From Nonlabens ponticola (GTDB lineage: Bacteria > Bacteroidota > Bacteroidia > Flavobacteriales > Flavobacteriaceae): 32,000 nt of DNA. Below the pieces are notes generated by a model. The model saw nothing but the letters and a program-made list of their open reading frames with translations, searched no databases and was not told the origin of the DNA. Position 1 is the first letter of the stretch; every line of letters begins with the position of its first letter. This document shows, piece by piece, positions 9,265-25,037 of this stretch. The position numbers and the translations under genes are program-made. The stretch covers positions 1,020,001 to 1,052,000 of the forward strand of contig NZ_CP034549.1 of the NCBI RefSeq assembly GCF_003966335.1, read 5' to 3'.

Positions 9265-10320
9265 TTGCAAGTGAGCATTGAAAAACAAACACCAAGATTG
9301 GGAAACACAATATTATATAAGGCATTGCAAGAGCGTATCCTAGTGCTGGATGGCGCTATGGGCACGATGCTACAGCGACACAAATTTACTGAGGCCGACT
9401 TTCGTAGTGAGCGTTTCAAGAATTATCCGTATGATGTAAAAGGAAATAATGATTTATTGTCCATCACTCAGCCGGAAGCCATTGCAGATGTTCATGCGCA
9501 ATATTTTGCGGCAGGTGCTGACATTGTGGAGACCAATACGTTTAGTGCAACCACCATCGCCATGGCAGATTACCACATGGAAGATCTGGTCGATGAGCTG
9601 AACATTCAAAGTGCTCAAATCGCACGCAAAGTCGCTGACGACTTCACGGCTCGCGAGCCGCACAAACCCAGATTTGTCGCCGGCGCGATCGGCCCAACCA
9701 ATAAAACAGCTAGCATGTCGCCAGATGTTAATGATCCAGGCTATCGTGCGATCACTTTTGACGAGTTGCGCGTTGCCTACAAACAGCAAGCTGCTGGATT
9801 GATAAAAGGTGGCGTGGATATTTTGCTGGTAGAGACGGTCTTTGACACGCTCAATGCCAAGGCGGCTCTTTTTGCCATTTCAGAATTGAAAGAAGAACTA
9901 AATCTAGATATTCCGGTTATGGTAAGCGGTACGATCACAGATGCATCGGGAAGAACTCTAAGCGGTCAAACAGCAGAGGCGTTTATGATTTCGATTGAGC
10001 ATATTCCGCTGTTATCTGTTGGTTTCAATTGCGCATTGGGCGCAAAACAACTCACACCTTATTTGGAAACCGTGGCAAGCAAATCGCCATTTGGCATCAG
10101 TGCCTATCCCAATGCAGGATTGCCTAATGCTTTTGGCGAGTACGATGAATCGCCAGAACAAATGGCATCTCAAATACGAGAATACCTCGACAAATCACTG
10201 ATCAACATCATCGGTGGTTGTTGTGGTACGACACCAGATCATATTGCTGCCATCGCTAAAATCGCTGCAGAATACAAGCCGAGACCCATTCCTTCACTTC
10301 AAAAACTAGCGTATGCCTGA
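9265..10320 (+). CDS. metH: methionine synthase, N-terminal homocysteine S-methyltransferase domain (separate ORF)
   Basis: Hcy-binding domain with Zn-ligand motifs GFNCALG and [11 protein letters not shown]. The ORF-track start is TTG 9265; GTG 9271 is an alternative. The stop overlaps the next ORF (ATGCCTGA). Confidence 0.85.
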
Positions 10321-13027
10321 TAAACAAGTGAACGAATTTAGACCACTCAAACTTAGCGGACTCGAACCGCTAGTCATTACTCCCGAAAGTAATTTTGTCA
10401 ATGTAGGCGAGCGTACCAATGTAGCGGGTTCCAAAAAATTCTTGCGTTTAATCAATGAGGATAAATTTGACGAGGCACTGGAAATAGCAAGAGATCAGGT
10501 GGACAATGGTGCGCAGATCATCGACATTAACATGGATGATGGAATGATCAATGGCAAGGCTGCCATGGTCAAATTCCTCAATCTCATAGCAGCAGAACCG
10601 GACATTTCGCGGGTGCCTATCATGATCGACAGTTCCAAATGGGAAATCATCGAGGCTGGATTGCAGGTTGTTCAGGGAAAATGCGTGGTCAATTCCATCA
10701 GCCTTAAGGAAGGCGAGGAAGAATTTGTCAAACACGCCAAAGCTATCAAACGCTACGGCGCCGCCGTGATCGTCATGGCCTTTGATGAAGTAGGTCAAGC
10801 AGACACCTATGAACGCCGCATTGAGATTGCCAAGCGCAGTTACGATATCCTGGTGGATAAGATAAATTTCGCGCCAGAGGACATCATTTTTGACCTGAAC
10901 ATATTTCCAGTGGCAACTGGAATGGAAGAACATAAACTCAACGCACTCGACTTTATCAATGGCACGCGTTGGGTGCGAGAGAACCTGCCGCATGCCAGCG
11001 TAAGTGGTGGCGTGAGCAATGTGAGTTTCAGCTTTCGTGGCAATAACAAAGTGCGTGAGGCCATGCATAGTGCCTTTCTATTTCATGCTATAAAGGCTGG
11101 AATGAACATCGGTATCGTGAACCCAGCACTGCTGGAAGTTTATGACGATATCGATAAGGAACTGCTGGAGTATGTAGAAGATGTCTTGCTCAATCGTCGG
11201 GATGACGCCACTGAACGACTACTCGATTATGCCGAGAGCGTTACTCAAACAGTAAGAACCAGCACGATAGATAACAGTTGGCGTGAAACACCTCTACAGG
11301 ATCGAATCACACGAGCTCTTATTAAAGGTATTGACGCCTACATCATAGAAGATGTCGAGGAAGCCAGACAAGTATCCAGCGCGCCGATCGAGGTCATAGA
11401 AGGTCACTTGATGACAGGTATGAATGTCGTCGGCGACCTGTTTGGTTCTGGAAAAATGTTCCTACCGCAAGTAGTCAAGAGTGCACGCGTTATGAAAAAG
11501 GCGGTAGCCTATCTGTTGCCCTACATTGAAGCAGAGAAAGAAAAGAATTTAAAAGAAAATCCTGATTTTCTTTCCAGCACCAGTTCGCCAAAGGTATTGA
11601 TGGCCACCGTAAAAGGTGACGTGCATGACATCGGGAAAAACATTGTTTCGGTAGTACTTGCATGCAATAATTATGAGATCATTGATCTAGGCGTCATGGT
11701 ACCACCAGAAAAAATTCTGGATGCTGCAATTGAACATCAAGTGGATATCATTGGCCTGAGCGGACTCATCACGCCGTCGCTGGATGAGATGGTTTATATC
11801 GCCAAGGAGATGAAACGACGCAATTTTGAGGTGCCTTTGATGATAGGTGGTGCGACGACTTCGCGAGCGCATACGGCCGTCAAGATTGCACCAGAATATG
11901 ACGGAACCATCGTTCACGTGAATGATGCCAGTCGTGCGGTAACCGTCGCTGGAGAATTGACTGGTGATAAGGGTGATGACTATCACGCTTTCGCGAAAGC
12001 TAAAAAAGAAGAATACACTAAACTGCGCAATGACTTTTTAGGTAGGGCCAAGAAAAAGGATTTCCTAACGATTGAGCAGGCACGAGAAAATAAACTACAA
12101 TTGGATTGGAGCAATTACCAACCTGTGAAGCCGAAGGAACTTGGCGTTCATGAGTTGGAAGCAATTGATTTAAAAGAAGTTGTTCCATACATTGACTGGT
12201 CGCCGTTCTTCCGCAGTTGGGATTTGCATGGTCGTTATCCTGATATTTTGACCGATGCCGTCGTGGGCGAGCAAGCGACAGATCTTTTTGCAGATGCTCA
12301 AGAAATGTTGAAGAAAATCATTGATGAGAATTGGTTAGTGGCAAAAGCACTCTACGGTTTGTTCCCAGCAAATTCCAATGAGCAGGATGACATAGAGGTC
12401 AAGGGAACTGATCAGGATTTTATATTCAGAACCTTGCGCCAACAATCCAAAAAAGCGGTTGGAAAACCTCAAATCGCACTATCTGACTTCATCGCACCAC
12501 AGGAATCCGGCGTTCAAGATTATATAGGAGTATTTTGTGTGAGCACAGGTTTTGGTGTTCCAGAACGAGCTGCGCAATTTGAGAAGGATCACGACGATTA
12601 CAATTCCATCATGCTCAAAGCTCTTGCCGACCGACTCGCCGAAGCGCTAGCCGAATATCTGCACCTAAGAATACGTAAGGAATTCTGGGGTTATGCCAGC
12701 GACGAGCAGTTGGAAAACAATGACTTGATCAAAGAAGCCTATAAAGGAATACGACCTGCTCCAGGTTATCCAGCCTGTCCAGATCACTTGGAAAAAGAGA
12801 CGATTTGGGAATTGTTGCAAGTAGAAAAACGCATAGGCGTAAAGCTTACGGAAAGCCTTGCCATGTGGCCGGCAGCCAGTGTTTCCGGCTACTACATTGC
12901 ACATCCAGAATCACGCTACTTTGGGCTGGGCAAGATTAAGGAAGATCAGGTCAAGGACTATGCAGACCGTAAAGGAATCTCTTTTGCGAAAGCGGAAAAA
13001 TGGCTCAACCCAAACATCGCTGATTAA
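10313..13027 (+). CDS. metH: methionine synthase, pterin-binding + cobalamin-binding + AdoMet-activation domains
   Basis: 904 aa with the B12-binding DVHDIGKN (DxHxxG) and [10 protein letters not shown] motifs. The activation domain carries [12 protein letters not shown]. Confidence 0.9.
11987..12000. repeat. 14-bp perfect palindrome GCTTTCGCGAAAGC, inside metH
   Basis: Read directly. Translated as A-F-A-K-A. A one-mismatch copy at 12981-12995 (CTTTTGCGAAAGCGG) in the same gene reads S-F-A-K-A-E. Confidence 0.95.
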
Positions 13028-14010: not shown

Positions 14011-15204
14011 ATGACGTATCATGTTTTAATGTTGTTGGTTTGTTACGCCCTGCCTGTCGTGACCGCACTTGGGCAGGCAGGTTTCGCGAAAGCGGGCTTC
14101 TCACAATCTAATAGCAACTCTACCAGCAATGATAAAAATCTCGATAAAATTTTTACAATCGACGCTTCCTACCTGTACGGGACGATCCTGCAACACAATC
14201 CAGATATCTCGCATTTGATCACAGATCATCCTACGGCGATCCTTTTGAGTTATAACCGCAAGACTTATGGTGGCCAAGAATGGCAGTCGCGCTACAATTT
14301 CCCAGACTACGGTTTTAGTTTTGCCTATCAGGACATGAAAAATCGATTTCTAGGTGAGGCTTATGGTGCGTATGCGCATTATAACTTTTACTTTTTTAAT
14401 CGCAACATGCAGTTTAGAGTAGGGCAAGGAATCTCTTACATGACGAGACCTTTTGACGTGGATAGCAATCCGCAGAATAATGCCTATGGTACCCGATTGA
14501 CTAGTTCGACTTATTTGCTGGGTAATTATAGGAAAGAGAATTTATTTCATGGTTTTGGTTTTCAAGTAGGAGCGAGCATCATCCATTATTCAAATGCTAA
14601 TGTGCGTGCGCCCAACAACTCTACTAATACATGGTTGTTCAACGCTGGTGTCAATTACACATTTAATCATGAAGAGATTCCAGAATATAAGATATGGCCT
14701 AAGAGAAAGTACACGGAGCCTATAGGATTGACAGCGGTCGCGCGTCTAGGTTTTAATGAGAGTGACTATCGCGGAAGTGGACAATATCCGTTTTATGATT
14801 TTAGCGTTTATCTGGACAAGCGCATCAACATCAAGAGCAGCCTGCATGCTGGTTTAGAACTTTTCATTGCAGAATTCTTAAAGGAATACCGTGATTACAG
14901 AGTTAATAGCTTTCCAGAAGATGATATTGATGGTGACGAGAATTTCCAGAGAGCAGGAATTTTTGTAGGTCACGAGTTGCACTTGGGAAAAACAAGTTTG
15001 CTGTCGCAGTTAGGTTATTACTACTACCAGCCCATACCTTTTGAATCCAGATTTTATAACCGTCTAGGATTACAACGCAGACTGACCGACAATATATTTG
15101 CCAGCGTGACCGTAAAAGCGCATGGCGCCAAAGCCGAAGGCGTTAGCCTAGGGATAGGCTACAGATTTGAGAATATCTTTAAATCAAAACTAGAGAAGTT
15201 ATGA
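14011..15204 (+). CDS. acyloxyacyl hydrolase / lipid A deacylase (PagL-like) outer-membrane protein
   Basis: 397 aa with a hydrophobic N-terminus, beta-barrel-like alternating aromatic pattern, and an HYSNANVRAPNN (H-x-S-N) signature recalled for the PagL-like family. The N-terminal 30 codons are largely encoded by the 59-bp repeat. Confidence 0.55.
   Translation: MTYHVLMLLVCYALPVVTALGQAGFAKAGFSQSNSNSTSNDKNLDKIFTIDASYLYGTILQHNPDISHLITDHPTAILLSYNRKTYGGQEWQSRYNFPDYGFSFAYQDMKNRFLGEAYGAYAHYNFYFFNRNMQFRVGQGISYMTRPFDVDSNPQNNAYGTRLTSSTYLLGNYRKENLFHGFGFQVGASIIHYSNANVRAPNNSTNTWLFNAGVNYTFNHEEIPEYKIWPKRKYTEPIGLTAVARLGFNESDYRGSGQYPFYDFSVYLDKRINIKSSLHAGLELFIAEFLKEYRDYRVNSFPEDDIDGDENFQRAGIFVGHELHLGKTSLLSQLGYYYYQPIPFESRFYNRLGLQRRLTDNIFASVTVKAHGAKAEGVSLGIGYRFENIFKSKLEKL
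14035..14093 (-). repeat. 59-bp composite palindrome-hairpin element, copy A (inverted relative to copy B)
   Basis: Exact reverse complement of 24890-24948 by hand alignment. It contains TTTCGCGAAA and an 8-bp stem CCTGCCTG/CAGGCAGG. Confidence 0.9.
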
Positions 15205-16079
15205 ATTCAGAATTAGGACTTAAGAGTGAATTCAGAATTCAGAATGAAGAATCCAGAATTGGATTATGGATTATAGAATATGGAGAATGGAAGCTCTTCG
15301 CTCACAAGAATTTCAAGAAGGCGGTTTCGATCATCATATTTATGGCCGTTATATTAACAACAACCTCTTGCGATTCAGAAGAAGGCCTTAACTGTACCCA
15401 AGCTGCTGGTGATCTGGTAAGTACAGAGGTTGAGGTAGAACCTTTTAATAAAGTAGTCATTTTTGAGCGCATGGGCGCAACATTTATACACGGTGATGAG
15501 CAAAAAGTGGTTGTGCGCACTGGTGAAAACCTTTTAAATGACATTGAACTAAATGTGGTCGACGGTCAATTACAAGTGGTCAACAATAATGGCTGCAATG
15601 TGATGCGAGATTATGGCATTACACAAATCGAAATCACATCGCCCAACTTGACCGAAATAAGAACCAGCACTGGCGAAGACTTAAAAAGCGATGGTATCTT
15701 GAGGTATCCTAATTTGACCTTATTATCAGAAGATGAAAGTGTTGAAGAGGATTTCTACAACACAGATGGTCACATGCGTTTGAATCTGGATGTAGAAAAC
15801 TTAATCATCATCTCAAATAATTTGAGTTATTTCTACCTAGAAGGAAATGTGGAAAATGCAGATATCACTTTTCTAGATGGAGATGGTCGCATCTATGCAG
15901 CAGATCTTGAGATCCAAAACGCACAGATCTTTCATCGAGGAACATCAGAATGGCGCATGGATGTAAAACAAAACATCGCCGGAACCATAAATGGCTACGG
16001 CGATGTGATATTGAATTCTAGACCTACCAACGTCGACGTTGATGTCACGTGGCGTGGTCGATTACTGTTTGAAAACTAG
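15201..16079 (+). CDS. DUF2807 / head GIN-domain lipoprotein
   Basis: Lipoprotein-like signal KNFKKAVSIIIFMAVILTTTSC, followed by the repetitive beta-rich pattern typical of DUF2807 (V..G...V.I..GDEQKVVV......L..I...V.DGQL.V). The only canonical start upstream of the signal peptide is ATG 15201, which places the heptamer array in the first 30 codons. The alternative ATG 15342 truncates the signal. Confidence 0.55.
   Translation: MNSELGLKSEFRIQNEESRIGLWIIEYGEWKLFAHKNFKKAVSIIIFMAVILTTTSCDSEEGLNCTQAAGDLVSTEVEVEPFNKVVIFERMGATFIHGDEQKVVVRTGENLLNDIELNVVDGQLQVVNNNGCNVMRDYGITQIEITSPNLTEIRTSTGEDLKSDGILRYPNLTLLSEDESVEEDFYNTDGHMRLNLDVENLIIISNNLSYFYLEGNVENADITFLDGDGRIYAADLEIQNAQIFHRGTSEWRMDVKQNIAGTINGYGDVILNSRPTNVDVDVTWRGRLLFEN
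15203..15290 (+). repeat. degenerate heptanucleotide tandem array (GAATTCA-type, about 13 units)
   Basis: GAATTCA GAATTAG GACTTAA (GAGT) GAATTCA GAATTCA GAATGAA GAATCCA GAATTGG ATTATGG ATTATAG AATATGG AGAATGG. It starts at the stop codon of the upstream gene. Confidence 0.75.
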
Positions 16080-16675
16080 AGAAGCGTGATAGGCATTTCT
16101 GCTCTGTAATTTGCCCAGCCCATTTTTAAATGAACCACATTATCATCATTAGGTGAATACAGCGCGATGCTCAAATCCTCTAGGCTATCATCTACCGTGC
16201 TTACTGGAATTGTAATAGTCACGATGTCAAGAGCTGCATTGTGAGAGAAATTTCCCCAACCGTCATTCTCAGCATTAACATGAATCGTCCACTCATTCTT
16301 ATTAGGAACCACAACTAGTGTGTAACGTCCTGCTACCAGTACCTGATCGCCTATTTTGGCATCTTGTAATAGCAGCAATTCTGTACTTTCATTAGCACCT
16401 AGACGCCATTTTTCACCGTATTTAGTAATACCAGCCTTGCGGTCATCACTTTCTCTAAAAAGCGTGCGACCCTTAAGTGATGGACGGCCGTATAATACTC
16501 TAATGGCTGGTTGCAGAGCAGCTTTTTGCTCGTCAGTTTTCGCGAAAGCTCTCTTAGGAGCATCTGCTGGAAAATAGGCGACATCCATCGGGCTCTTGTC
16601 GGCGCCAGCAAAATCTTGTGCGTTTACAGTAAAAGTCATTGCGGCTGCGGCAATGCATAAAATCAAATTTTTCAT
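16076..16675 (-). CDS. DUF2911 domain-containing secreted protein
   Basis: Signal peptide MKNLILCIAAAAMTFTVNAQ. The SPMDVAYFP, YGRPSLKGR, WRLGANEST and AGRYTL..VPN..EWT pattern is recalled for DUF2911. Confidence 0.6.
   Translation of the reverse strand: MKNLILCIAAAAMTFTVNAQDFAGADKSPMDVAYFPADAPKRAFAKTDEQKAALQPAIRVLYGRPSLKGRTLFRESDDRKAGITKYGEKWRLGANESTELLLLQDAKIGDQVLVAGRYTLVVVPNKNEWTIHVNAENDGWGNFSHNAALDIVTITIPVSTVDDSLEDLSIALYSPNDDNVVHLKMGWANYRAEMPITLL
16535..16550. repeat. palindrome family copy AGTTTTCGCGAAAGCT (one mismatched pair), inside DUF2911 gene
   Basis: Contains the exact TTTCGCGAAA core. Read on the minus strand as R-A-F-A-K-T. Confidence 0.85.
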
Positions 16676-16708
16676 GTTGTTAATTATTTGAATTAAAGGT
16701 AAGAAACC

Positions 16709-17497
16709 TTAGATAAGATCTGTCTTGTATAGTATCAATCCGCTTGATGGTGCTATGTGCGATAGGTGGATTTTATTGCTGCCATCCAGTGTTTTCTCAA
16801 ATTTTTTAAGAGTTAACTTGCCCATTCCCAGATCAAATAGCGCACCCATCATTAGCCGTACCTGGTGGCGTTTGAATCCTTTACCGCTTACGCGAAAGCA
16901 AAAGCTTTTCTCGGGAAAAAAGCTAGCTGTAAAGAGATGGTTCTCTTCGATATAACAGCTGTCAACCACGCTGGTGGTGATGGTTTCCGCTTTAGGTTTG
17001 TAGGTATATGACCAGAAATCTTTCTCTCCTATAAACATTTGGGCGGCAGTTTTCATAAGTTCTATATCCAGCTGTGATTTCATATAAACCATAAGCGACG
17101 CACAAAACGGATGGAACTTCTCGCCATGCGAAAATAGGTAGATGTATTCCTTGAGTTTTGCTGCCTGAATGATGTTGAAATCTGCAGTGGTTTCTTGAAT
17201 TCCTAAGGCTCTTATATCACTGGGTAAGTTGAGATTGAATTCCTGTATGAACTCCTCAAGATCTGCGATAGGCTCGTCATCAAGAAATAATTCAATCGCT
17301 GTTTCATTTACTGACACACGAGCATCGGTACGACCTGCTGCCAGGATTTTGAAATTGGAATGATCAAACACAAATCTCAAGGTGCGCTGCACCATGCGCT
17401 CGACGGTAGGTAGATTTGGCTGCTTTTGCCAACCGTGGAAACGGAAGCCTAGGTATTGTAACTTAATGATGTAGTAGTGTCGCTGGTTGAATGGCAT
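16709..17497 (-). CDS. TruA-family tRNA pseudouridine synthase (divergent)
   Basis: YLGFRFHGWQKQ and AGRTDARVS, which carries the catalytic Asp of the GRTD motif. 262 aa. It contains a one-mismatch palindrome copy at 16886-16899. Confidence 0.7.
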   Translation of the reverse strand: MPFNQRHYYIIKLQYLGFRFHGWQKQPNLPTVERMVQRTLRFVFDHSNFKILAAGRTDARVSVNETAIELFLDDEPIADLEEFIQEFNLNLPSDIRALGIQETTADFNIIQAAKLKEYIYLFSHGEKFHPFCASLMVYMKSQLDIELMKTAAQMFIGEKDFWSYTYKPKAETITTSVVDSCYIEENHLFTASFFPEKSFCFRVSGKGFKRHQVRLMMGALFDLGMGKLTLKKFEKTLDGSNKIHLSHIAPSSGLILYKTDLI

Positions 17498-17531
17498 GTA
17501 TCAAAGATAGGATTTGTAAGCGGTTGCGACT

Positions 17532-17564
17532 TTATACGTATCTTTATAAAATAGATACGTATAA
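17532..17564. promoter_or_regulatory. 12-bp perfect inverted repeat TTATACGTATCT-N9-AGATACGTATAA abutting the antitoxin start codon (candidate operator)
   Basis: Read directly. The right arm ends on the A of ATG 17564. Confidence 0.6.
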
Positions 17565-17863
17565 TGAAAAAGAAACTGACATTAAGTATAGATGAAGAAG
17601 TCATTAAGAAGGCTAAATCATACGCTAAGGAAACTGATCGCAGTCTGTCCGAATTGATTGAAGGTTATCTTGAAAAGATCACAGGTTCAAATCTTGTAAA
17701 AGAACCTGAGGCTACCTATGAAAAGCGTTCATCACAATCCGAGAATAAAAAACATGAAGCGAGTATTTATCGCAAAATGGCTGGCATCGTAAAATCTGAT
17801 TGGGATCCAGTCGAGGATCGAGAGAAGTTTAGAGATGTGCGACTCGAGAAATATTTAAAATGA
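17564..17863 (+). CDS. antitoxin-like protein (DUF6364 / ribbon-helix-helix-like)
   Basis: MKKKLTLSIDEEVIKKAKSYAKETDRSLSELIEGYL resembles RHH/DUF6364 antitoxins. Its stop overlaps the PIN gene start (ATGA). Confidence 0.6.
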   Translation: MKKKLTLSIDEEVIKKAKSYAKETDRSLSELIEGYLEKITGSNLVKEPEATYEKRSSQSENKKHEASIYRKMAGIVKSDWDPVEDREKFRDVRLEKYLK

Positions 17864-18264
17864 AGTACTTTGTTGACGTAAACATCATAATTGACCTATT
17901 TCTTACTCGTAAACCTTTTGTTGAGAATGCGGTTTTAATATTTGAAGCAGTCAAAAAAATAAATTGGACACTCTATACATCAGACAATGCTATAACAACT
18001 TCCTATTTCTATTTGAAAAAAGAGAATGGTGCGGTAGCTGCAAAAAAGACAATAGCCACTTTTTTGAGAGATATAGAGATTGTGCCTGTAAGTCGCGCGA
18101 TGTTGATAACCGCAAGTACAAGTAAAATCAACGACTTTGAAGATGCTGTCCAATTTGAATGTGCCGCATCCATTAAAGGCATCGACGGTATTATCACCAG
18201 AAATAAAAAGGATTTCAAGCATTCTACCATTCCAGTATTTGCGCCTGAAGAGGTTTTGTTTTAG
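17860..18264 (+). CDS. PIN-domain toxin (VapC-like ribonuclease)
   Basis: 134 aa with acidic residues at PIN-typical positions (YFVDVNIIID, FEDAVQ, ITRNKKDF). It is translationally coupled to the upstream small ORF. Confidence 0.7.
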   Translation: MKYFVDVNIIIDLFLTRKPFVENAVLIFEAVKKINWTLYTSDNAITTSYFYLKKENGAVAAKKTIATFLRDIEIVPVSRAMLITASTSKINDFEDAVQFECAASIKGIDGIITRNKKDFKHSTIPVFAPEEVLF

Positions 18265-18292
18265 AGTACATAGTATTTAGTACAAAGTACAA
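18265..18292 (+). repeat. heptanucleotide array AGTACAT AGTATTT AGTACAA AGTACAA
   Basis: Starts at the first base after the PIN gene stop codon. Four units of 7 nt. Confidence 0.65.
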
Positions 18293-18360
18293 AGACGCTT
18301 TTGAATACATTAGTTGCCTAGCACTTAACCAGGACCATTCAACTAATTTTGGTTATGTTT

Positions 18361-19263
18361 TTAATCACCAGTAAGTTCCTGAAACATCGTCTCAAGATTT
18401 TTGTTCCTCTTGTTTAAGGATAGAATCTTCAATTCATTATCGTGGGCAAAATCAAACACGCCGCTACGCTGGTCATCTTTGGTTTCAAAGATCAATCGGT
18501 AATTGAAGCCGTTCAGTTCTTTAACCTCACGCACCATAGGAATGCGTGCCAGCAATTCTGGTTCAACTTTGTAGTCAAATTCAACCTCGATTACTTGAGT
18601 GGCGTCGCTTTTTAGATTTTTCAAGTAATCGTCTGCGACAATCTTTCCCTTATTAATAATGATGACACGATCACACATTGCTTCAACTTCCTGCATGATG
18701 TGTGTACTCAATAAAATCGTTGTGCTTTCTGACACCTTGCGTATCAACTGTCTTATTTCCACTAGTTGGTTGGGATCCAGACCTGTGGTAGGCTCATCGA
18801 GGATAAGCACTTTTGGTTTGTGTAATAAAGCGTTAGCAAGTCCTACGCGTTGCTTGTAACCTTTAGAAAGCTCCTTGATTTTCTTGCCTTTATGAGAATC
18901 TAGACCAGTGAGTTCAATGACTTTTGTCACGCGATCCTTGAGTTGCTCAATGTTATATACACTGCCACTAAATTCTAGATACTCGCGCACATACATCTCT
19001 GGATATAGTGGGTTGTTCTCTGGCAAGTAGCCTATCGATTTCTGCACCTCTCGCGGCTCTTTGCTCACATCATGTCCATTGACCGTTGCCTCACCATCAT
19101 TTGCATTGAGATAAGTGGTCAAGATGCGCATCATGGTAGATTTGCCAGCGCCATTGGGTCCCAAAAAACCAACGATCTCACCAGATTTGATAGAAAAACT
19201 AACATTATCCAGTGCTTTTAGATTACCATAATACTTTGATAATTGATCAACTTTTATAGACAT
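18361..19263 (-). CDS. gldA: ABC transporter ATP-binding protein, GldA-like (gliding motility associated)
   Basis: Walker A GPNGAGKST, signature LSKGYKQR and Walker B LILDEPT. The N-terminus closely resembles Flavobacterium GldA as I recall it. The gene symbol is tentative. Confidence 0.65.
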   Translation of the reverse strand: MSIKVDQLSKYYGNLKALDNVSFSIKSGEIVGFLGPNGAGKSTMMRILTTYLNANDGEATVNGHDVSKEPREVQKSIGYLPENNPLYPEMYVREYLEFSGSVYNIEQLKDRVTKVIELTGLDSHKGKKIKELSKGYKQRVGLANALLHKPKVLILDEPTTGLDPNQLVEIRQLIRKVSESTTILLSTHIMQEVEAMCDRVIIINKGKIVADDYLKNLKSDATQVIEVEFDYKVEPELLARIPMVREVKELNGFNYRLIFETKDDQRSGVFDFAHDNELKILSLNKRNKNLETMFQELTGD

Positions 19264-19330
19264 AAGGTAAAGATAGGGATTGTTGGAATGTACAAATGAG
19301 TCAGATAGATGTTTAATAGGATTTTAAAAG

Positions 19331-19352
19331 TTACGCTTTCGCGAAAGCGTAA
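19331..19352. repeat. 22-bp perfect palindrome TTACGCTTTCGCGAAAGCGTAA, intergenic
   Basis: Read directly. It lies in the divergent region between the gldA-like gene and the phe leader. Confidence 0.95.
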
Positions 19353-19463
19353 TCGCCCAAAGCAGCATAACACGGTTTCTAAAACGTTGTAGTAAAATAA
19401 TTATTGAAAAACGCTGCATTTTGCTTGTGGTTCAAAATAAGAGGTTTACATTAGTCACTTATT

Positions 19464-19532
19464 ATGAATAACAATACTTATTTCTGGTACGGTTTCTACT
19501 TCTATTTTATGGAAGCGCGGACGGTATTGTAG
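19464..19532 (+). CDS. aromatic amino-acid operon leader peptide MNNNTYFWYGFYFYFMEARTVL
   Basis: 22 codons bounded by an in-frame TAG at 19452 and TAG at 19530. Nine of ten consecutive residues are F, W or Y. It is followed by the attenuator hairpin and then pheA. Confidence 0.75.
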   Translation: MNNNTYFWYGFYFYFMEARTVL

Positions 19533-19556
19533 AAATTCAAATTAATAATTTACAAT

Positions 19557-19585
19557 AAAGTCCTGATCCAGTCAGGACTTTTTTT
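19557..19585 (+). terminator. intrinsic terminator / attenuator of the phe-tyr operon leader
   Basis: Stem 19557-19566 pairs with 19572-19581 (AAAGTCCTGA / TCAGGACTTT), the loop is TCCAG, and the T-run extends to 19585. It ends 10 nt before the pheA ATG. An alternative pairing of 19519-19533 with 19549-19563 would sequester its 5' arm. Confidence 0.75.
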
Positions 19586-19595
19586 ATAGATCAAA

Positions 19596-20411
19596 ATGAA
19601 AGTAGCCATTCAAGGCATCGCAGGATCCTATCATCATCAAGCAGCAACAGCGCTGTTTGAAGAAGCCACCATGGTAGAATGCGACACCTTTGAACAGTTG
19701 GCACAATCAGTAGATCGTGGCGAGTCTCAGGCTGGTGTCATGGCGATAGGCAACTCTATTGCTGGTAGCATTTTACCAAATTATGGTTTGCTACAACAGT
19801 ACCAACTTGTGATTACGGCAGAGTATTTCTTACCCATAAATCATTGCCTCATGGCGATCGCAGGTCAAACGTTGAAAGATATTGAAGAGGTTCAATCGCA
19901 CCCAATGGCCTTATTGCAATGCAAGCCGTTTTTAAATGATCTAGAAAACACCAAGCTGGTAGAAACTGATGATACCGCAGCCGCAGTGATGAGAATAAAG
20001 CGGAACCACCTTAAAGGTGTCGCGGCCATAGCATCATCAATTGCAGCCAGCCTTTATGATCTTGAAATCATCGCACAAGACATTCAGGAAGAAAAGCTAA
20101 ATGCCACCAGATTTGTTGTAGTTGAAAAAGCCTCGCAACCTGAGACTGAAAACTCCAACAAAGCAACATTAAATTTTACGACCACACATGAGGCAGGAAG
20201 CTTGAGCCGAATCTTGAGTCTATTTGCGCGTAAAGGTCTCAATCTATCCAAAATTCAATCCATTCCTATTCCTGAGCAGCCATTTCTATTCAGTTTTGTA
20301 GTGGATGTGGAATTTGTTGAGCTACAAATGTTTAAAGATGCCGTGCGTGAGGTGAAATCTCTAACCAAAGAATTTAATATTATGGGAATCTATAAAGCTG
20401 CCACGCTATGA
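19596..20411 (+). CDS. pheA: prephenate dehydratase with C-terminal ACT domain
   Basis: N-terminal VAIQGIAGSYHHQAA. ACT region TTHEAGSLSRILSLFARKGLNLSKIQSIP. Confidence 0.85.
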   Translation: MKVAIQGIAGSYHHQAATALFEEATMVECDTFEQLAQSVDRGESQAGVMAIGNSIAGSILPNYGLLQQYQLVITAEYFLPINHCLMAIAGQTLKDIEEVQSHPMALLQCKPFLNDLENTKLVETDDTAAAVMRIKRNHLKGVAAIASSIAASLYDLEIIAQDIQEEKLNATRFVVVEKASQPETENSNKATLNFTTTHEAGSLSRILSLFARKGLNLSKIQSIPIPEQPFLFSFVVDVEFVELQMFKDAVREVKSLTKEFNIMGIYKAATL

Positions 20412-21571
20412 TCACACCAGCAGATAAATTAAATGAGGTTAAGGAATACTATTTTGCAACAAAATTGCGCGAGGTAAAGTCCTTAATCAATCAGGGCAAG
20501 CCTATTATCAATGCAGGTATAGGTAGTCCAGATTTGCAACCACCAGCGGCTGTAAATGAAGCGTTGATTGATGCATTAAACGATGAGAGAGCGCATCAAT
20601 ATCAAAGTTATCTGGGATTGCCCGAATTGCGAGAGGCGATGAGCAATTTTTATGCACGTCATTATAACGTCCGGTTAGATCCAGCAAGCGAGGTAATACC
20701 GCTCATGGGTAGTAAAGAAGGTATTCTGCATATTTCCATGTCTTTTCTCAATAAAGGTGATCAGGTGCTGGTTCCCAATCCAGGTTATCCTACCTACTCA
20801 AGTGCTACACGATTGTGTGAGGCAACGCCTATTTATTATAATTTGATAGATGAGAACGACTGGATGCCAGATCTTGAATCGTTGCAATCACAAGATTTGA
20901 GCAAGGTAAAAATCATGTGGGTCAACTATCCGCACATGCCTACCGGTGTGGCTGGTAGCTCTCAGGTTTTTGCACAGTTAATAGTCTTTTGCCAGAAGCA
21001 TGACATATTATTAGTCAATGACAATCCCTATAGCTTTTTGGGATACGATAAAAAAATCAGCATCCATCAGTTTACAAATTCAAGAAACGCACAGGTGCTT
21101 GAATTGAACTCGGTAAGTAAGACGTTTAACATGGCAGGCTGGCGTGTAGGTATGTTGACTGGTAACGCCACACTCATTAAAGAAGTCCTTAAAGTAAAAA
21201 CCAATATGGACAGTGGCATGTTTTATCCAGTTCAAAAAGGTGCGATCGCTGCTCTCAAGACTGAAGATGATTGGTACGCGACCCAATTAGAAATTTATAG
21301 AGAACGTAGATCAAAAATGGTTGAAGTTGCCAAAGCACTAGGTTGCGAACCCATAAAACAAGAAGGTGGATTGTTTGTTTTTTGCAAATTGCCTGTTGGT
21401 ATCGACGACAAGCAGTTTGTCGATGATTTACTTCATGAGCATGATATTTTCATTGCGCCAGGAAGCATTTTTGGCAGTAATGGAGCTCGCTACGTTCGTT
21501 TTTCCCTTTGCGTGAAAATTGAAGATATAGAAATCATGCTCGACAGAGTTTCAAAAAAAGTTCAAGCATGA
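20408..21571 (+). CDS. class I/II PLP aminotransferase (likely aromatic/prephenate aminotransferase)
   Basis: SVSKTFNMAGWRVG PLP-lysine motif and NPGYPTY. It overlaps pheA (ATGA) and tyrA. Confidence 0.8.
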   Translation: MITPADKLNEVKEYYFATKLREVKSLINQGKPIINAGIGSPDLQPPAAVNEALIDALNDERAHQYQSYLGLPELREAMSNFYARHYNVRLDPASEVIPLMGSKEGILHISMSFLNKGDQVLVPNPGYPTYSSATRLCEATPIYYNLIDENDWMPDLESLQSQDLSKVKIMWVNYPHMPTGVAGSSQVFAQLIVFCQKHDILLVNDNPYSFLGYDKKISIHQFTNSRNAQVLELNSVSKTFNMAGWRVGMLTGNATLIKEVLKVKTNMDSGMFYPVQKGAIAALKTEDDWYATQLEIYRERRSKMVEVAKALGCEPIKQEGGLFVFCKLPVGIDDKQFVDDLLHEHDIFIAPGSIFGSNGARYVRFSLCVKIEDIEIMLDRVSKKVQA

Positions 21572-22428
21572 AAAATGTATATCTGATAGGAGTAGGATTG
21601 ATAGGTGGCTCAATGTTGCTGGATTTGAGAGCTCATTATCCAGAAGCTGTCTTTTATGGAATCGATCATAATGATGATCATCTGGATCAAGCGATATCCT
21701 GCGGCGTTGTTGATCACAAAGCAACGATGGAAGATCTTATAAATGCAGATCTAGTCATCGTCTCAATTCCCGTAGATGCTACGGTCAATTTGCTTTCACA
21801 AGTTCTCGATAATATAAATGATGACAGTCTAGTCATGGATGTAGGATCGACTAAAGAGGCCATTTGCGCATCAGTAGCAAATCATAAAAACAGGCGACAA
21901 TACCTCGCTACACATCCTATTGCAGGAACTGAATTTTCTGGACCACAAGCAGCGATAAAAGATCTTTATAAAGGCAAGACCATGATCGTTTGCGAGGTGG
22001 AGAAAACCGCTTTTGCACAACAGGAATTAGGCAAAGGATTATTGGAAAAGCTGGGTATGCGAGTTAGATATATGACACCAGCAGCGCACGACAAGCACAT
22101 AGCATATGTGTCCCATTTATCGCATATTTCCAGTTTTATGCTGGGTAAAACCGTGATACAGGAAGAAGCTAACGAGCGCGATATTTTTGATCTCGCCGGT
22201 AGTGGATTTGAGAGCACTGTGCGATTGGCCAAGAGCTCGCCTGCCATGTGGACGCCTATCTTTGCACAAAATAAAGAGCACGTTATAGCTGGACTGGATG
22301 GTTATATTGATAATCTAGTTAGCTTTCGCGAAAGCTTAAAAAACGACAATCACACAGCCATTTATAACGAGATGGCGCAAACCAATAGAATTAAAACCAT
22401 ACTGAAAGGAATACAAAATGGAAAATAA
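21568..22428 (+). CDS. tyrA: prephenate dehydrogenase
   Basis: IGVGLIGGS Rossmann motif and HPIAGTEFSG catalytic region. Operon context supports the call. Confidence 0.85.
   Translation: MKNVYLIGVGLIGGSMLLDLRAHYPEAVFYGIDHNDDHLDQAISCGVVDHKATMEDLINADLVIVSIPVDATVNLLSQVLDNINDDSLVMDVGSTKEAICASVANHKNRRQYLATHPIAGTEFSGPQAAIKDLYKGKTMIVCEVEKTAFAQQELGKGLLEKLGMRVRYMTPAAHDKHIAYVSHLSHISSFMLGKTVIQEEANERDIFDLAGSGFESTVRLAKSSPAMWTPIFAQNKEHVIAGLDGYIDNLVSFRESLKNDNHTAIYNEMAQTNRIKTILKGIQNGK
22321..22336. repeat. 16-bp perfect palindrome AGCTTTCGCGAAAGCT, inside tyrA
   Basis: Read directly. Translated as S-F-R-E-S (second frame). Confidence 0.95.
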
Positions 22429-23500
22429 GAAAGAACACAGAGCGTGGCTGGATGCCCATAACCTAGATCACCCATTAGTCATCGCAGGCCCTTGCAGCGC
22501 CGAGACAGAAGAGCAAGTACTCAAGATCGCACATGAATTAAAGGATAGTGATACGACTTATTTCAGGGCAGGAATCTGGAAGCCTAGAACACGACCGGGA
22601 AACTTTGAAGGAGTAGGCGCTATAGGTCTCAAATGGCTGCAACGCGCCAAAGAAGAAACTGGACTATTAACTACTACTGAGGTAGCCAACAAAGCTCACG
22701 TTGATCTAGCACTAGAGCATGATATAGATATGTTATGGATAGGTGCACGATCAACGGTAAGTCCATTTATTGTTCAAGAAATCGCAGATGCCTTACAGGG
22801 TACCGACAAGGTAGTATTAGTCAAGAATCCAGTAAATCCAGATCTTGCATTATGGATAGGAGCGCTAGAGCGTTTGCACACAGCTGGAATTAAGAATCTA
22901 GGAGTGATCCATCGAGGATTTTCTACCTATGATAAATCAAAATACCGCAACAACCCAGAATGGCAGATTGCGGTAGATTTCCAGACACGTTTTCCTGATA
23001 TTCCGCTTATTTGCGACCCATCACATATTACCGGTAAGAGAGATATGATACTGGATGTTTCACAAACAGCACTCGACTTGAACTACGATGGATTGATGAT
23101 AGAAACCCATTTTGATCCAGAGAACGCATGGAGTGATGCCGCACAGCAAGTGACGCCAGCCAGTCTGATCCAGATCACTAAAGACCTGAAGATTAGAAAA
23201 GAAATGGATGACGAGGCTGGATACCAGCAAAAACTAGGTCAATTGCGCGCACAAATCGATGTAATCGACAATACGTTGATTGAGACCATGGGTAAACGCA
23301 TGAAAACTGCAGACTCCATTGGTGAGCTCAAAAAATCTAGAAACGTGGCTGTGCTTCAATCAAAAAGATGGAATGAAATTCTAGGCAAGATGATTCTTCT
23401 AGGTGAGGAGCAAGGATTGAGCGAGGAATTCATTTTGAGAGTCTTCAAAGCCGTGCACCAAGAATCGATCAACCATCAAGAAAGAGTAATTAAGGGGTAA
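22418..23500 (+). CDS. bifunctional 3-deoxy-7-phosphoheptulonate (DAHP) synthase / chorismate mutase
   Basis: An N-terminal type I-beta DAHPS-like domain (GPCSAE, IWKPRT, CDPSH) plus a C-terminal AroQ-type chorismate mutase segment (LRAQIDVIDNTLIETMGKRM...). Confidence 0.8.
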   Translation: MENKKEHRAWLDAHNLDHPLVIAGPCSAETEEQVLKIAHELKDSDTTYFRAGIWKPRTRPGNFEGVGAIGLKWLQRAKEETGLLTTTEVANKAHVDLALEHDIDMLWIGARSTVSPFIVQEIADALQGTDKVVLVKNPVNPDLALWIGALERLHTAGIKNLGVIHRGFSTYDKSKYRNNPEWQIAVDFQTRFPDIPLICDPSHITGKRDMILDVSQTALDLNYDGLMIETHFDPENAWSDAAQQVTPASLIQITKDLKIRKEMDDEAGYQQKLGQLRAQIDVIDNTLIETMGKRMKTADSIGELKKSRNVAVLQSKRWNEILGKMILLGEEQGLSEEFILRVFKAVHQESINHQERVIKG

Positions 23501-23553
23501 TTCCATTAGTTTTGTAATATGAGAAATTTCATTTGGTGTAGTAAAAACGATCT

Positions 23554-24558
23554 ATGACTGGAACCGTCTATCGATCCACAGGAAGCTGGTATGAGGTAAA
23601 AGGCACTGATGGTGCTTTTTACTCTTGTAGGATAAAGGGTAAATTCCGTTTGCAGGGTATCAAGAGTACTAATCCTGTTGCGGTAGGTGATCAGGTAGAT
23701 TTTGAGATTGAGAAAAAGGGTGATGAAGAGATAGGAATCATCAATGAGATTCACGAGCGTGATAATTACATCGTGCGCAAATCAGTCAACCTATCCAAGC
23801 AAACGCATATAATCGCTGCAAATGTCGATCAGGTTTTTTTACTGGTTACGCTTAATAATCCACCGACGTTTACCTCATTTATTGATCGGTTTCTGGTGAC
23901 TGCCGAGGCCTATCACATTCCTGCTGTCCTTGTTTTCAATAAAGTAGATACCTATGACGATAGTCAAGATCAGGTAGCTATTGATCCAGAAACTGGTGAA
24001 GAAATGCTCACCATGACCGAGCTTGATGAGGTGCGTTACCTCATGAGTTTATATAAATCCATAGGATATGACTGTATTGCGATAAGCGCGGCAACGGGTA
24101 AAAATGTGGATCAAATTAAAGAGAAGATGACTGGTAAAACCAGCATGTTTTCTGGTCACAGTGGTGCAGGAAAAAGCACGTTGGCAAATGCCGTCCAGCC
24201 AGGTCTGGAGCTCAAAACAAAAGAAATATCAGACCAGCACAAGCAAGGGCAGCATACCACCACATTTGCAGAGATGTTTGATCTTGATTTTGACGCCCGA
24301 TTGATCGATACGCCTGGTATCAAAGGATTTGGTGTAGTCGACATGGAAAGGGAAGAGATAGGCGATTATTTTCCAGAGATCTTTGAACTCAAATCTCAAT
24401 GTAAATTCCATAATTGCCTGCACATTGAGGAGCCTAAATGCGCCATCAAGCAAGCGGTTGAAGAAGGCGCCATTGCCGCTTCACGTTATGAAAGCTATGT
24501 TCAAATAGTCCAAGGTGATGAGGAAAATTATAGACAGGACAAACACGTGCCTAAATGA
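23554..24558 (+). CDS. rsgA: ribosome small-subunit-dependent GTPase A
   Basis: Circularly permuted GTPase order (NKVD before GHSGAGKSTL and DTPG) with a C-terminal zinc knuckle CKFHNCLHIEEPKC. Confidence 0.85.
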   Translation: MTGTVYRSTGSWYEVKGTDGAFYSCRIKGKFRLQGIKSTNPVAVGDQVDFEIEKKGDEEIGIINEIHERDNYIVRKSVNLSKQTHIIAANVDQVFLLVTLNNPPTFTSFIDRFLVTAEAYHIPAVLVFNKVDTYDDSQDQVAIDPETGEEMLTMTELDEVRYLMSLYKSIGYDCIAISAATGKNVDQIKEKMTGKTSMFSGHSGAGKSTLANAVQPGLELKTKEISDQHKQGQHTTTFAEMFDLDFDARLIDTPGIKGFGVVDMEREEIGDYFPEIFELKSQCKFHNCLHIEEPKCAIKQAVEEGAIAASRYESYVQIVQGDEENYRQDKHVPK

Positions 24559-25037
24559 GAGCGATCGTTCAAAGAGTGAAAAATGCCAGCGTCAGTATAG
24601 ACGGTCAGATGAAAGGTCAAATTGATAAAGGCTTACTCATTTACCTGGGAATAACTCATGATGACACCCAAGATGATGCCGATTATCTAGTACGTAAAAT
24701 TCTGGGAATGCGAATTTTCAATGATGAAAACGCCGTTATGAATTTATCAATTGAGGACACTGATGGTGAGATTTTACTGATTTCTCAGTTCACACTTTAT
24801 GCACAAACGAGAAAAGGCAATCGACCTAGTTATGTCGCTGCTGCACGCCCAGAAGTCGCATTACCGTTATATAATTATGTTATTAGTCAGCTTTCGCGAA
24901 ACCTGCCTGCCCAAGTGCGGTCACGACAGGCAGGGCGTAACAAACCAATAGCTACAGGTACGTTTGGTGCAGATATGCAGGTAGCATCCACTAATGACGG
25001 GCCTGTGACAATAATTGTTGATTCTGTTTCTAAATAG
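24555..25037 (+). CDS. dtd: D-aminoacyl-tRNA deacylase carrying an in-frame repeat-derived insertion
   Basis: MRAIVQRV, SQFTL, GNRPS, FGADMQV and NDGPVT motifs. It is 160 aa versus about 145-150 aa for typical Dtd. The extra segment coincides with the 59-bp element. Confidence 0.85.
   Translation: MRAIVQRVKNASVSIDGQMKGQIDKGLLIYLGITHDDTQDDADYLVRKILGMRIFNDENAVMNLSIEDTDGEILLISQFTLYAQTRKGNRPSYVAAARPEVALPLYNYVISQLSRNLPAQVRSRQAGRNKPIATGTFGADMQVASTNDGPVTIIVDSVSK
24890..24948 (+). repeat. 59-bp composite palindrome-hairpin element, copy B
   Basis: GCTTTCGCGAAA CCTGCCTG CCCAAGTGCGGTCACGA CAGGCAGG GCGTAACAAACCAA. Identical to the reverse complement of 14035-14093. Translated as LSRNLPAQVRSRQAGRNKP within dtd. 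Confidence 0.9.

Follow-up and report, generated by a model that had tools for sequence, protein, structure and literature searches.

The 32,000-nt stretch of the Nonlabens ponticola genome studied here (contig NZ_CP034549.1, positions 1,020,001 to 1,052,000; hereafter the window) contains a 59-bp sequence in two identical inverted copies, one in a gene for a PagL-like acyloxyacyl hydrolase and the other in dtd, the gene for D-aminoacyl-tRNA deacylase. We are confident that this repeat consists of a 33-nt GC-rich hairpin module, lodged between nucleotides 12 and 13 of one copy of the 14-nt palindrome GCTTTCGCGAAAGC, and of 12 nt of adjoining gene flank, and that the insert is the derived state. 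The palindrome behaves like HIP1, a highly iterated palindrome of cyanobacteria, and is specific to the genus Nonlabens. As to how the hairpin travels, we give roughly even chances to a process in which short-patch templated copying (ectopic gene conversion or template switching), anchored by the palindrome, spreads it from one palindrome copy to another.

A first-pass annotation of the window had reported the repeat as a 59/59 inverted identity, placed both copies inside open reading frames (ORFs), described an 8-bp GC-rich stem with a 17-nt loop and noted the lack of a target-site duplication. Direct comparison bore out all four statements: positions 14035-14093 (+) equal the reverse complement of 24890-24948, the stem (CCTGCCTG/CAGGCAGG) of the 33-nt hairpin is perfect, and neither N. 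ponticola copy is flanked by a duplication. In a repeat search the same pair appeared as 71 nt at 93%, which corresponds to the 59 exact positions plus a 12-nt extension matching at 7 of 12. The 33-nt core occurred exactly twice in the window and in none of 100 shuffles. Its sequence is open in five of the six reading frames. The 33-mer had no match in a viral contig collection, nor did its 27-nt core in a genome contig collection of which N. ponticola is not a part.

The layout of the 59-mer is GCTTTCGCGAAA / CCTGCCTG-CCCAAGTGCGGTCACGA-CAGGCAGG / GC / GTAACAAACCAA. Excision of the middle 33 nt (11 codons) rejoins GCTTTCGCGAAA with GC and gives the exact palindrome GCTTTCGCGAAAGC in both genes. 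Because only this length keeps both genes in frame and restores an exact palindrome, the inserted unit must be 33 nt, and its boundaries are unambiguous, since the bases flanking the junctions differ. A mobile unit of 47 or 59 nt is ruled out, as either length breaks both reading frames. The earlier description of a single composite 59-bp element that begins with the left 12 nt of the palindrome and ends in a 14-nt tail therefore had to be revised: the “tail” comprises the last two nucleotides (GC) of the split palindrome and 12 nt of gene flank, and the palindrome is the landing site, not the start of a longer unit. The link that had been drawn to a family of short palindromes holds, in that the hairpin sits within one member of it.

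The products of both host ORFs are 100% identical to annotated Nonlabens ponticola proteins. Comparison with relatives, which the first-pass annotation had proposed, revealed exact empty sites for dtd and for the PagL-like gene, so that both N. ponticola insertions are derived. With the 33 nt removed, dtd reads LSRKRNKPIATG, which needs no gap to align with LSRKRNKEIxTG, the Nonlabens consensus, and the N. ponticola enzyme goes back from 160 amino acids to the normal 149-151; relatives without the insert have 148-151. At this codon, dtd of the N. dokdonensis-like locus L002 reads GGCTTTCGCGAAAGCGGAATAAAG, with an intact palindrome, and the palindrome is likewise intact in N. xylanidelens (L009) and in locus L010. 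Removal of 33 nt from the PagL-like gene gives LVCYAFAKAGFS, MLLVCYAFAKAGFSQS and restores an ortholog-like protein; the empty site of its counterpart in L006 reads ATGTTGATATGTTTCGCTTTCGCGAAAGCGG / ATGTTGATATGTTTCGCTTTCGCGAAAGCGGTATTC. In the 25 listed Nonlabens PagL orthologs the motif ..AFAKA.. at the end of the signal peptide is uninterrupted, and N. ponticola alone has it interrupted. In the AlphaFold model of N. ponticola Dtd, for which the mean predicted local distance difference test score (pLDDT) is 81, the insert (residues about 116-127) is modelled between helices 99-116, 119-124 and strand 133-135, and residues 121-130 have a mean pLDDT of 59, consistent with a tolerated loop. The insert in the PagL-like protein sits in the signal peptide, a part that is cleaved, and with the Dtd insert in a low-confidence loop, extra residues are likely tolerated in both places.

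The landing site is one of many. The window holds eight exact and five near copies of GCTTTCGCGAAAGC; with up to two mismatches allowed, these 13 matches compare with 0.11 expected, which agrees with the iterated palindrome recognized in the first-pass annotation. Among the 11 genic copies, seven are read as (A/S/G)FAK(A/T), two as SFRES/RFRES, one as CFRVS and one, the split copy in dtd, as LSRN. In one count, every Nonlabens locus 3.7 kb or longer had 0.17-0.37 palindromes per kb; locus L116, counted separately, had 0.08 per kb. In most Nonlabens loci there is about one copy per 3-6 kb. Syntenic loci fetched with a prephenate-dehydratase profile (2 from Nonlabens and, as a negative control, 78 from other Bacteroidota) contained no copy in the 1.28 Mb of the 78 control loci. 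Position +1 is G in 70 of 80 palindrome half-sites, which makes the palindrome effectively a 16-mer, CGCTTTCGCGAAAGCG. Outward flanks are A-rich and G-poor, with T-rich left flanks and A-rich right flanks.

At protein identities of 53-76% between species, palindrome copies occupy the same codon. Orthologous sites were found in the genes for prephenate dehydrogenase, EPSP synthase, Dtd and the PagL-like protein, and also at an intergenic site beside an ABC-ATPase gene. In Gillisia and Spirosoma the place of the dtd palindrome is taken by another sequence of equal length, which indicates that this palindrome arose by substitution and not by insertion. Thus the 14-mer combines over-representation, lineage specificity and conservation at orthologous sites, the features of a HIP-type palindrome. 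In the searchable literature the palindrome is absent, and nothing there links Nonlabens or flavobacteria to an iterated palindrome. Several low-GC viral contigs from IMG/VR carry it at host-like density (three copies each in L205 and L241; two each in L174, L188, L230, L238, L266 and L269), and these are probably Nonlabens phages or prophages.

The hairpin itself recurs in a third gene. Metagenome contigs were scanned for the two stems together with 3+2 nt of the palindrome edges, and one of the 61 matches, L116, had the full palindrome context: GCAGCTTTCGCGAAA / CCTGCCTG TCGTGCCTTGG CAGGCAGG / GCGATATGG. Its insert of 27 nt (nine codons) lies in an alpha/beta-hydrolase gene, in the frame SFRE/S, with stems and a 12^13 insertion point as in N. 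ponticola; the loop corresponds to the N. ponticola loop in reverse complement and shortened (CCAAG-G-CACGA vs C-CCAAG-TGCGGT-CACGA). The same 27-nt insert is present in the orthologous hydrolase gene of N. antarcticus (L151), as GCTTTCGCGAAA / CCTGCCTG TCGTGCCTTGG CAGGCAGG / GC. An empty site with an exact palindrome was found in L152, and none of the nine other hydrolase orthologs in alignment A4 has the nine-residue insert; seven of them read GSFRESD. Between L116 and L151, the palindrome and insert are identical at 42 of 42 positions versus 78% for the rest of the gene and 62% for its third codon positions (P about 0.002), which argues that something keeps or refreshes them at the nucleotide level. 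In dtd of locus L008, a 21-nt insert, CCATGCCTTCCGGCAGGCAGG, has similar ends and lies 3 nt away within the palindrome, and may be a decayed relative of the family.

All five occurrences, namely the N. ponticola pair, the inserts of L116 and L151 and the related one of L008, are inside ORFs. The members that share the stems CCTGCCTG/CAGGCAGG are all located at 12^13 of a palindrome, in genes, with lengths that are multiples of three; in the three genes insertion was always at GCTTTCGCGAAA^GC and without duplication. We counted two hairpins in 32 kb of N. ponticola, one in 35 kb of N. antarcticus loci and none in about 110 kb of other Nonlabens loci. Throughout the roughly 176 kb of Nonlabens loci scanned, no hairpin copy was found outside a palindrome and no palindrome was split other than those in dtd, the PagL-like gene and the hydrolase gene. 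Each insert consists of one hairpin and has no second one within 100 nt to make up a doublet.

The other 60 of the 61 metagenome matches are unrelated (CCTG)n/(CAGG)n hairpins, for example from Patescibacteria, so the stems alone are not diagnostic; descent of the family from such hairpins was rejected for lack of evidence. A set of hairpins with stems CCTGCCTGCC/GGCAGGCAGG was observed in unrelated low-GC metagenome contigs, where they are intergenic, occur two to four times per locus and have no palindrome context (L112 at 3830, 5384, 8198 and 11898; L110 at 3111 and 5077; also L098, L108, L115, L139, L148 and L150). Proteins of L112 are named Patescibacteria, and these hairpins look like a separate GC-rich repeat family. 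The loop of the N. ponticola hairpin contains AAGTGCGGT (24910-24918 and 14065-14073), identical to the core of the Haemophilus uptake signal; we judged this a coincidence, since the N. antarcticus loop does not contain it.

The 12-nt flank shared by the two N. ponticola copies lies outside the element: after GC, N. antarcticus and L116 continue with GACATGG and GATATGG, unlike N. ponticola. Nor do these 12 nt represent an extended repeat, for the consensus visible in the flank logo is weak (G at +1 and, outward, richness in A). When compared with the other palindrome half-flanks (n=80), they matched on average at about 5.8 of 12 positions and at most at 9 of 12, and the 12/12 identity between the two genes is thus an outlier. 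In dtd these bases encode (R)NKP, as in L006 (KRNKPI), differ from the L006 gene solely at third codon positions and match dtd orthologs at all non-synonymous dtd positions. In the PagL-like gene the same bases give LVCY, where relatives have LICF or LLCF, and at both positions where the L006 dtd and PagL flanks differ non-synonymously the shared sequence is dtd-like. It therefore looks like native dtd sequence co-copied into the PagL signal peptide, with dtd as the probable donor and the PagL-like gene as the probable recipient.

Table 1. Palindromes, hairpin inserts and host genes in the window (positions count from its first letter)
Feature	Position	Strand	Remark
PagL-like acyloxyacyl hydrolase gene, insert in signal peptide	14011-15204	+	Pfam PagL, E=2.6e-20
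Copy 1 of the 59-nt identity, signal-peptide region of the PagL-like gene	14035-14093	-	
12-nt flank TTGGTTTGTTAC, reverse complement of 24937-24948; putative dtd donor flank	14035-14046		Encodes LVCY vs ortholog LICF/LLCF
GC, nt 1-2 of split palindrome	14047-14048		Removal of 14049-14081 gives GCTTTCGCGAAAGC
33-nt hairpin insert, 11 codons, LPVVTALGQAG	14049-14081	-	8-bp stem, 17-nt loop
TTTCGCGAAAGC, nt 3-14 of split palindrome, frame FAKA	14082-14093		
dtd (D-aminoacyl-tRNA deacylase)	24555-25037	+	Tyr_Deacylase, E=2.4e-57
Copy 2 of the 59-nt identity, within dtd	24890-24948	+	
GCTTTCGCGAAA, nt 1-12 of split palindrome, frame LSR	24890-24901		
33-nt hairpin insert, 11 codons, low-confidence Dtd loop	24902-24934	+	
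GC, nt 13-14 of split palindrome	24935-24936		
12-nt flank GTAACAAACCAA, native dtd sequence	24937-24948		Encodes (R)NKP as in orthologs (KRNKPI, KRNKEI)
Exact palindrome copies (starts)	506 (506-519), 4333, 6266, 9195, 11987, 19335, 22322, 30324		
Near palindrome copies (starts)	12980, 16536, 16886		

The palindrome in dtd receives other inserts as well. Locus L001 carries a 45-nt in-frame insert at GCTTTC^GCGAAAGC (6^7), a homologue of which, 73% identical, is present in dtd of N. antarcticus (L005). Comparison of L001 (385-443) with L002 (10336-10349), strains with 98.4% identity, showed that exactly these 45 nt are present in one and absent from the other. With fold z-scores of +0.6 and +0.4, the 45-nt insert does not form a strong hairpin. 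The dtd palindrome of L006 has a 39-nt in-frame insert, and that of L008 the 21-nt insert mentioned above. L001 and L002 differ by a second exact in-frame indel of 39 nt, located in the gene downstream of dtd (L002 10758-10796 vs L001 851/852).

Two further observations lie outside the palindromes and the hairpins. At 15202-15250, at the start of a DUF2807-like ORF (15201-16079), the window has an imperfect 25-nt tandem (TGAATTCAGAATT...AAGA, two copies). The MetH gene (L089 3183-6281) of the nearest relative detected, whose DNA is about 75% identical to the window, has an extra in-frame segment of about 140 amino acids (residues about 409 to 553) with Pfam matches to DUF559 and MTES_1575 (Vsr-like endonuclease); this segment does not coincide with a palindrome, and MetH of N. 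ponticola (window 10313-13027) is without it.

Palindrome-anchored copying would proceed as follows. A 3' end within TTTCGCGAAAGC would find a pairing partner in every other palindrome copy, whichever way that copy is oriented, because a palindrome is its own reverse complement. Synthesis would then copy the donor hairpin and the adjoining flank, and the new strand would rejoin the recipient through the similar A-rich flank common to palindrome copies. In N. ponticola, a dtd patch of 45-59 nt (palindrome, hairpin and 12-nt flank) would have been copied in inverted orientation into the PagL palindrome, overwriting 12 nt of signal-peptide coding sequence. Such an event would account for the inverted orientation, for the co-copied flank and for the abrupt end of the identity at the far edge of the palindrome. 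The co-copied dtd flank in particular favors short-patch copying over a clean transposition.

Several points weigh against this interpretation. Conversion would have very little homology to work with: a stretch of 12 nt at one end and, at the other, 2 nt followed by an imperfect flank. The model also names no enzyme or pathway. Copies were counted in 32 kb of sequence for N. ponticola and 35 kb for N. antarcticus, and the CCTGCCTG family was seen in just two independent lineages. The direction from dtd to the PagL-like gene comes from a codon-level comparison with distant orthologs. In other lineages the dtd palindrome bears unrelated inserts of 45, 39 and 21 nt, at 6^7 and about 9^10, and one mechanism may not cover every dtd insert. 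Finally, a fixed insertion point, the lack of a target duplication and a hairpin are also what is expected from a single-strand HUH transposase.

This last explanation is the strongest competitor, although we regard it as the less likely of the two. The hairpin (27-33 nt) would be the minimal non-autonomous substrate of a trans-acting HUH/Y1 transposase of the IS200/IS605 TnpA or RAYT kind, excised and then inserted 3' of ...TTTCGCGAAA (...GCGAAA) in single-stranded DNA, without duplication. In its favor, all three genes, in two species, share one insertion point that lacks a target-site duplication. The element also amounts essentially to a single perfect hairpin, and its loop occurs in both orientations, as expected if either strand of a symmetric hairpin is mobilized. 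The exact presence or absence of the 45-nt insert at the dtd palindrome of nearly identical strains also fits. However, a 12/12 flank identity is unexpected from clean cut-and-paste, and the shared tail would have to come from an imprecise event or a later conversion. Moreover, an IS200/IS605 derivative requires two different subterminal hairpins, one at the left and one at the right, whereas here one hairpin spans the insert. The gene lists of the window and of the scanned Nonlabens loci include no transposase, and in those loci no copy was intergenic or outside a palindrome.

We considered also that the hairpin could be a selected structural motif of DNA or mRNA that, for instance, binds a protein or modulates translation, with sequence identity reflecting constraint. 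The complete conservation of palindrome and insert between L116 and N. antarcticus, despite the divergence of third codon positions, and the identical stems of N. ponticola and N. antarcticus are in line with this. It is nevertheless improbable: most orthologs of all three genes do without the insert, the three host genes are functionally unrelated, the hairpins have no match in Rfam and modest DNA fold z-scores (-1.5 and -2.2), and constraint fails to explain the identity of the 12-nt flank. The dtd palindrome has repeatedly taken up unrelated insertions in several lineages, so independent events do occur there; even so, it is very improbable that no copying took place and that the inserts arose independently, are ancestral or reflect an assembly artefact. 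Between the loci 45 non-palindrome bases are identical, for which chance is negligible (the core was absent from the shuffles), the listed PagL orthologs are uninterrupted, and both copies lie in frame, within annotated proteins, in unique sequence of a single 2.87-Mb contig. The recent copying, by mobility or gene conversion, proposed in the first-pass annotation is supported.

We tentatively suggest that Nonlabens could harbor a second, independent HIP-like system, in which a genus-wide palindrome of 14-16 nt, maintained at the nucleotide level, would supply landing pads and pairing anchors for in-frame inserts of 21-45 nt, moved by a palindrome-directed copying or cleavage activity not yet described. 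We found no description of this Nonlabens system in the searchable literature. If such a system exists, it would offer a tractable non-cyanobacterial model for the role of iterated palindromes and for DNA mobility below 50 nt. Highly iterated palindromes have been an unsolved problem for 30 years, and to this the Nonlabens case adds a concrete copying event with a donor flank. It makes testable the hypotheses that the palindrome is an anchor for recombination or conversion, a target of a nuclease or transposase, or a source of in-frame peptide insertions. On the practical side, inserts of this kind make proteins and signal peptides longer, and they can lead annotation astray.

Among known systems, Rickettsia palindromic elements (RPEs) are about 100-150 bp long and occur in frame in ORFs, and their insertion is not directed to any particular short palindrome. 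The Nonlabens inserts resemble them, as the first-pass annotation had proposed, in being palindromic in-frame insertions in coding genes that add a tolerated peptide and have insert-free orthologs. Unlike RPEs, they are 27-33 nt long, below the RPE size range, are targeted to a palindrome and have no sequence relation to RPEs. The likeness to REP/BIME elements suggested alongside does not extend to location, since the inserts are inside genes: repetitive extragenic palindromic (REP) sequences and REPINs lie between genes in doublet form, with a conserved tetranucleotide on the 5' side and a RAYT gene linked to them (PMC3116915). None of these traits was seen in the Nonlabens loci covered, where the inserts are single and intragenic, and we do not class them as REP/REPIN. 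What they share with REP/REPIN and with IS200/IS605-derived palindrome-associated elements is the short GC-rich hairpin, the lack of target duplication and the sequence-specific placement. Miniature elements derived from IS200/IS605 likewise insert at a fixed sequence without target-site duplication, but in Nonlabens one hairpin extends over the entire 27-33 nt and there are no distinct left and right hairpins. Nor is the insert a miniature inverted-repeat transposable element (MITE), because the 8-bp inverted termini are not accompanied by a duplication and the palindrome is exactly restored when the insert is removed.

The palindrome itself is comparable with HIP1 (PMC5861425; bioRxiv 10.64898/2026.06.24.733823) in its massive over-representation, in its conservation at orthologous positions beyond coding need and in its presence in genes without a change of length, which implies spread by substitution; for HIP1, an origin by substitution rather than insertion is argued in the latter source. 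It differs from HIP1 in being confined to one flavobacterial genus, with no copy in the control loci of other Bacteroidota, and in its lower density. The closest known analogue of the inserts, as far as the accounts in these two sources go, is SDR5, one of the very small mobile repeated elements of Nostocaceae, which is 21 nt long and is found with, and lodged in, HIP1 (Elhai et al. 2008, via PMC5861425; bioRxiv 10.64898/2026.06.24.733823). To the extent that SDR5 is described there, the Nonlabens case differs in phylum and genus (Bacteroidota, Nonlabens), in an unrelated insert sequence, in the palindrome (14-16 nt, GCTTTCGCGAAAGC, versus the 8-nt HIP1 GCGATCGC) and in the evidence of a co-copied donor flank. 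New here is thus a very small insert in an iterated palindrome from a new phylum, with a new palindrome and evidence of flank co-copying. By the same accounts, both systems have in common a tiny insert (21-33 nt) within a hyper-abundant short palindrome, inside otherwise conserved sequence, genes included, with no known enzyme; as with SDR elements in HIP sites, the Nonlabens inserts are shorter than 50 nt (33 and 27 nt), lie within GCTTTCGCGAAAGC and have empty orthologous sites for all three genes.

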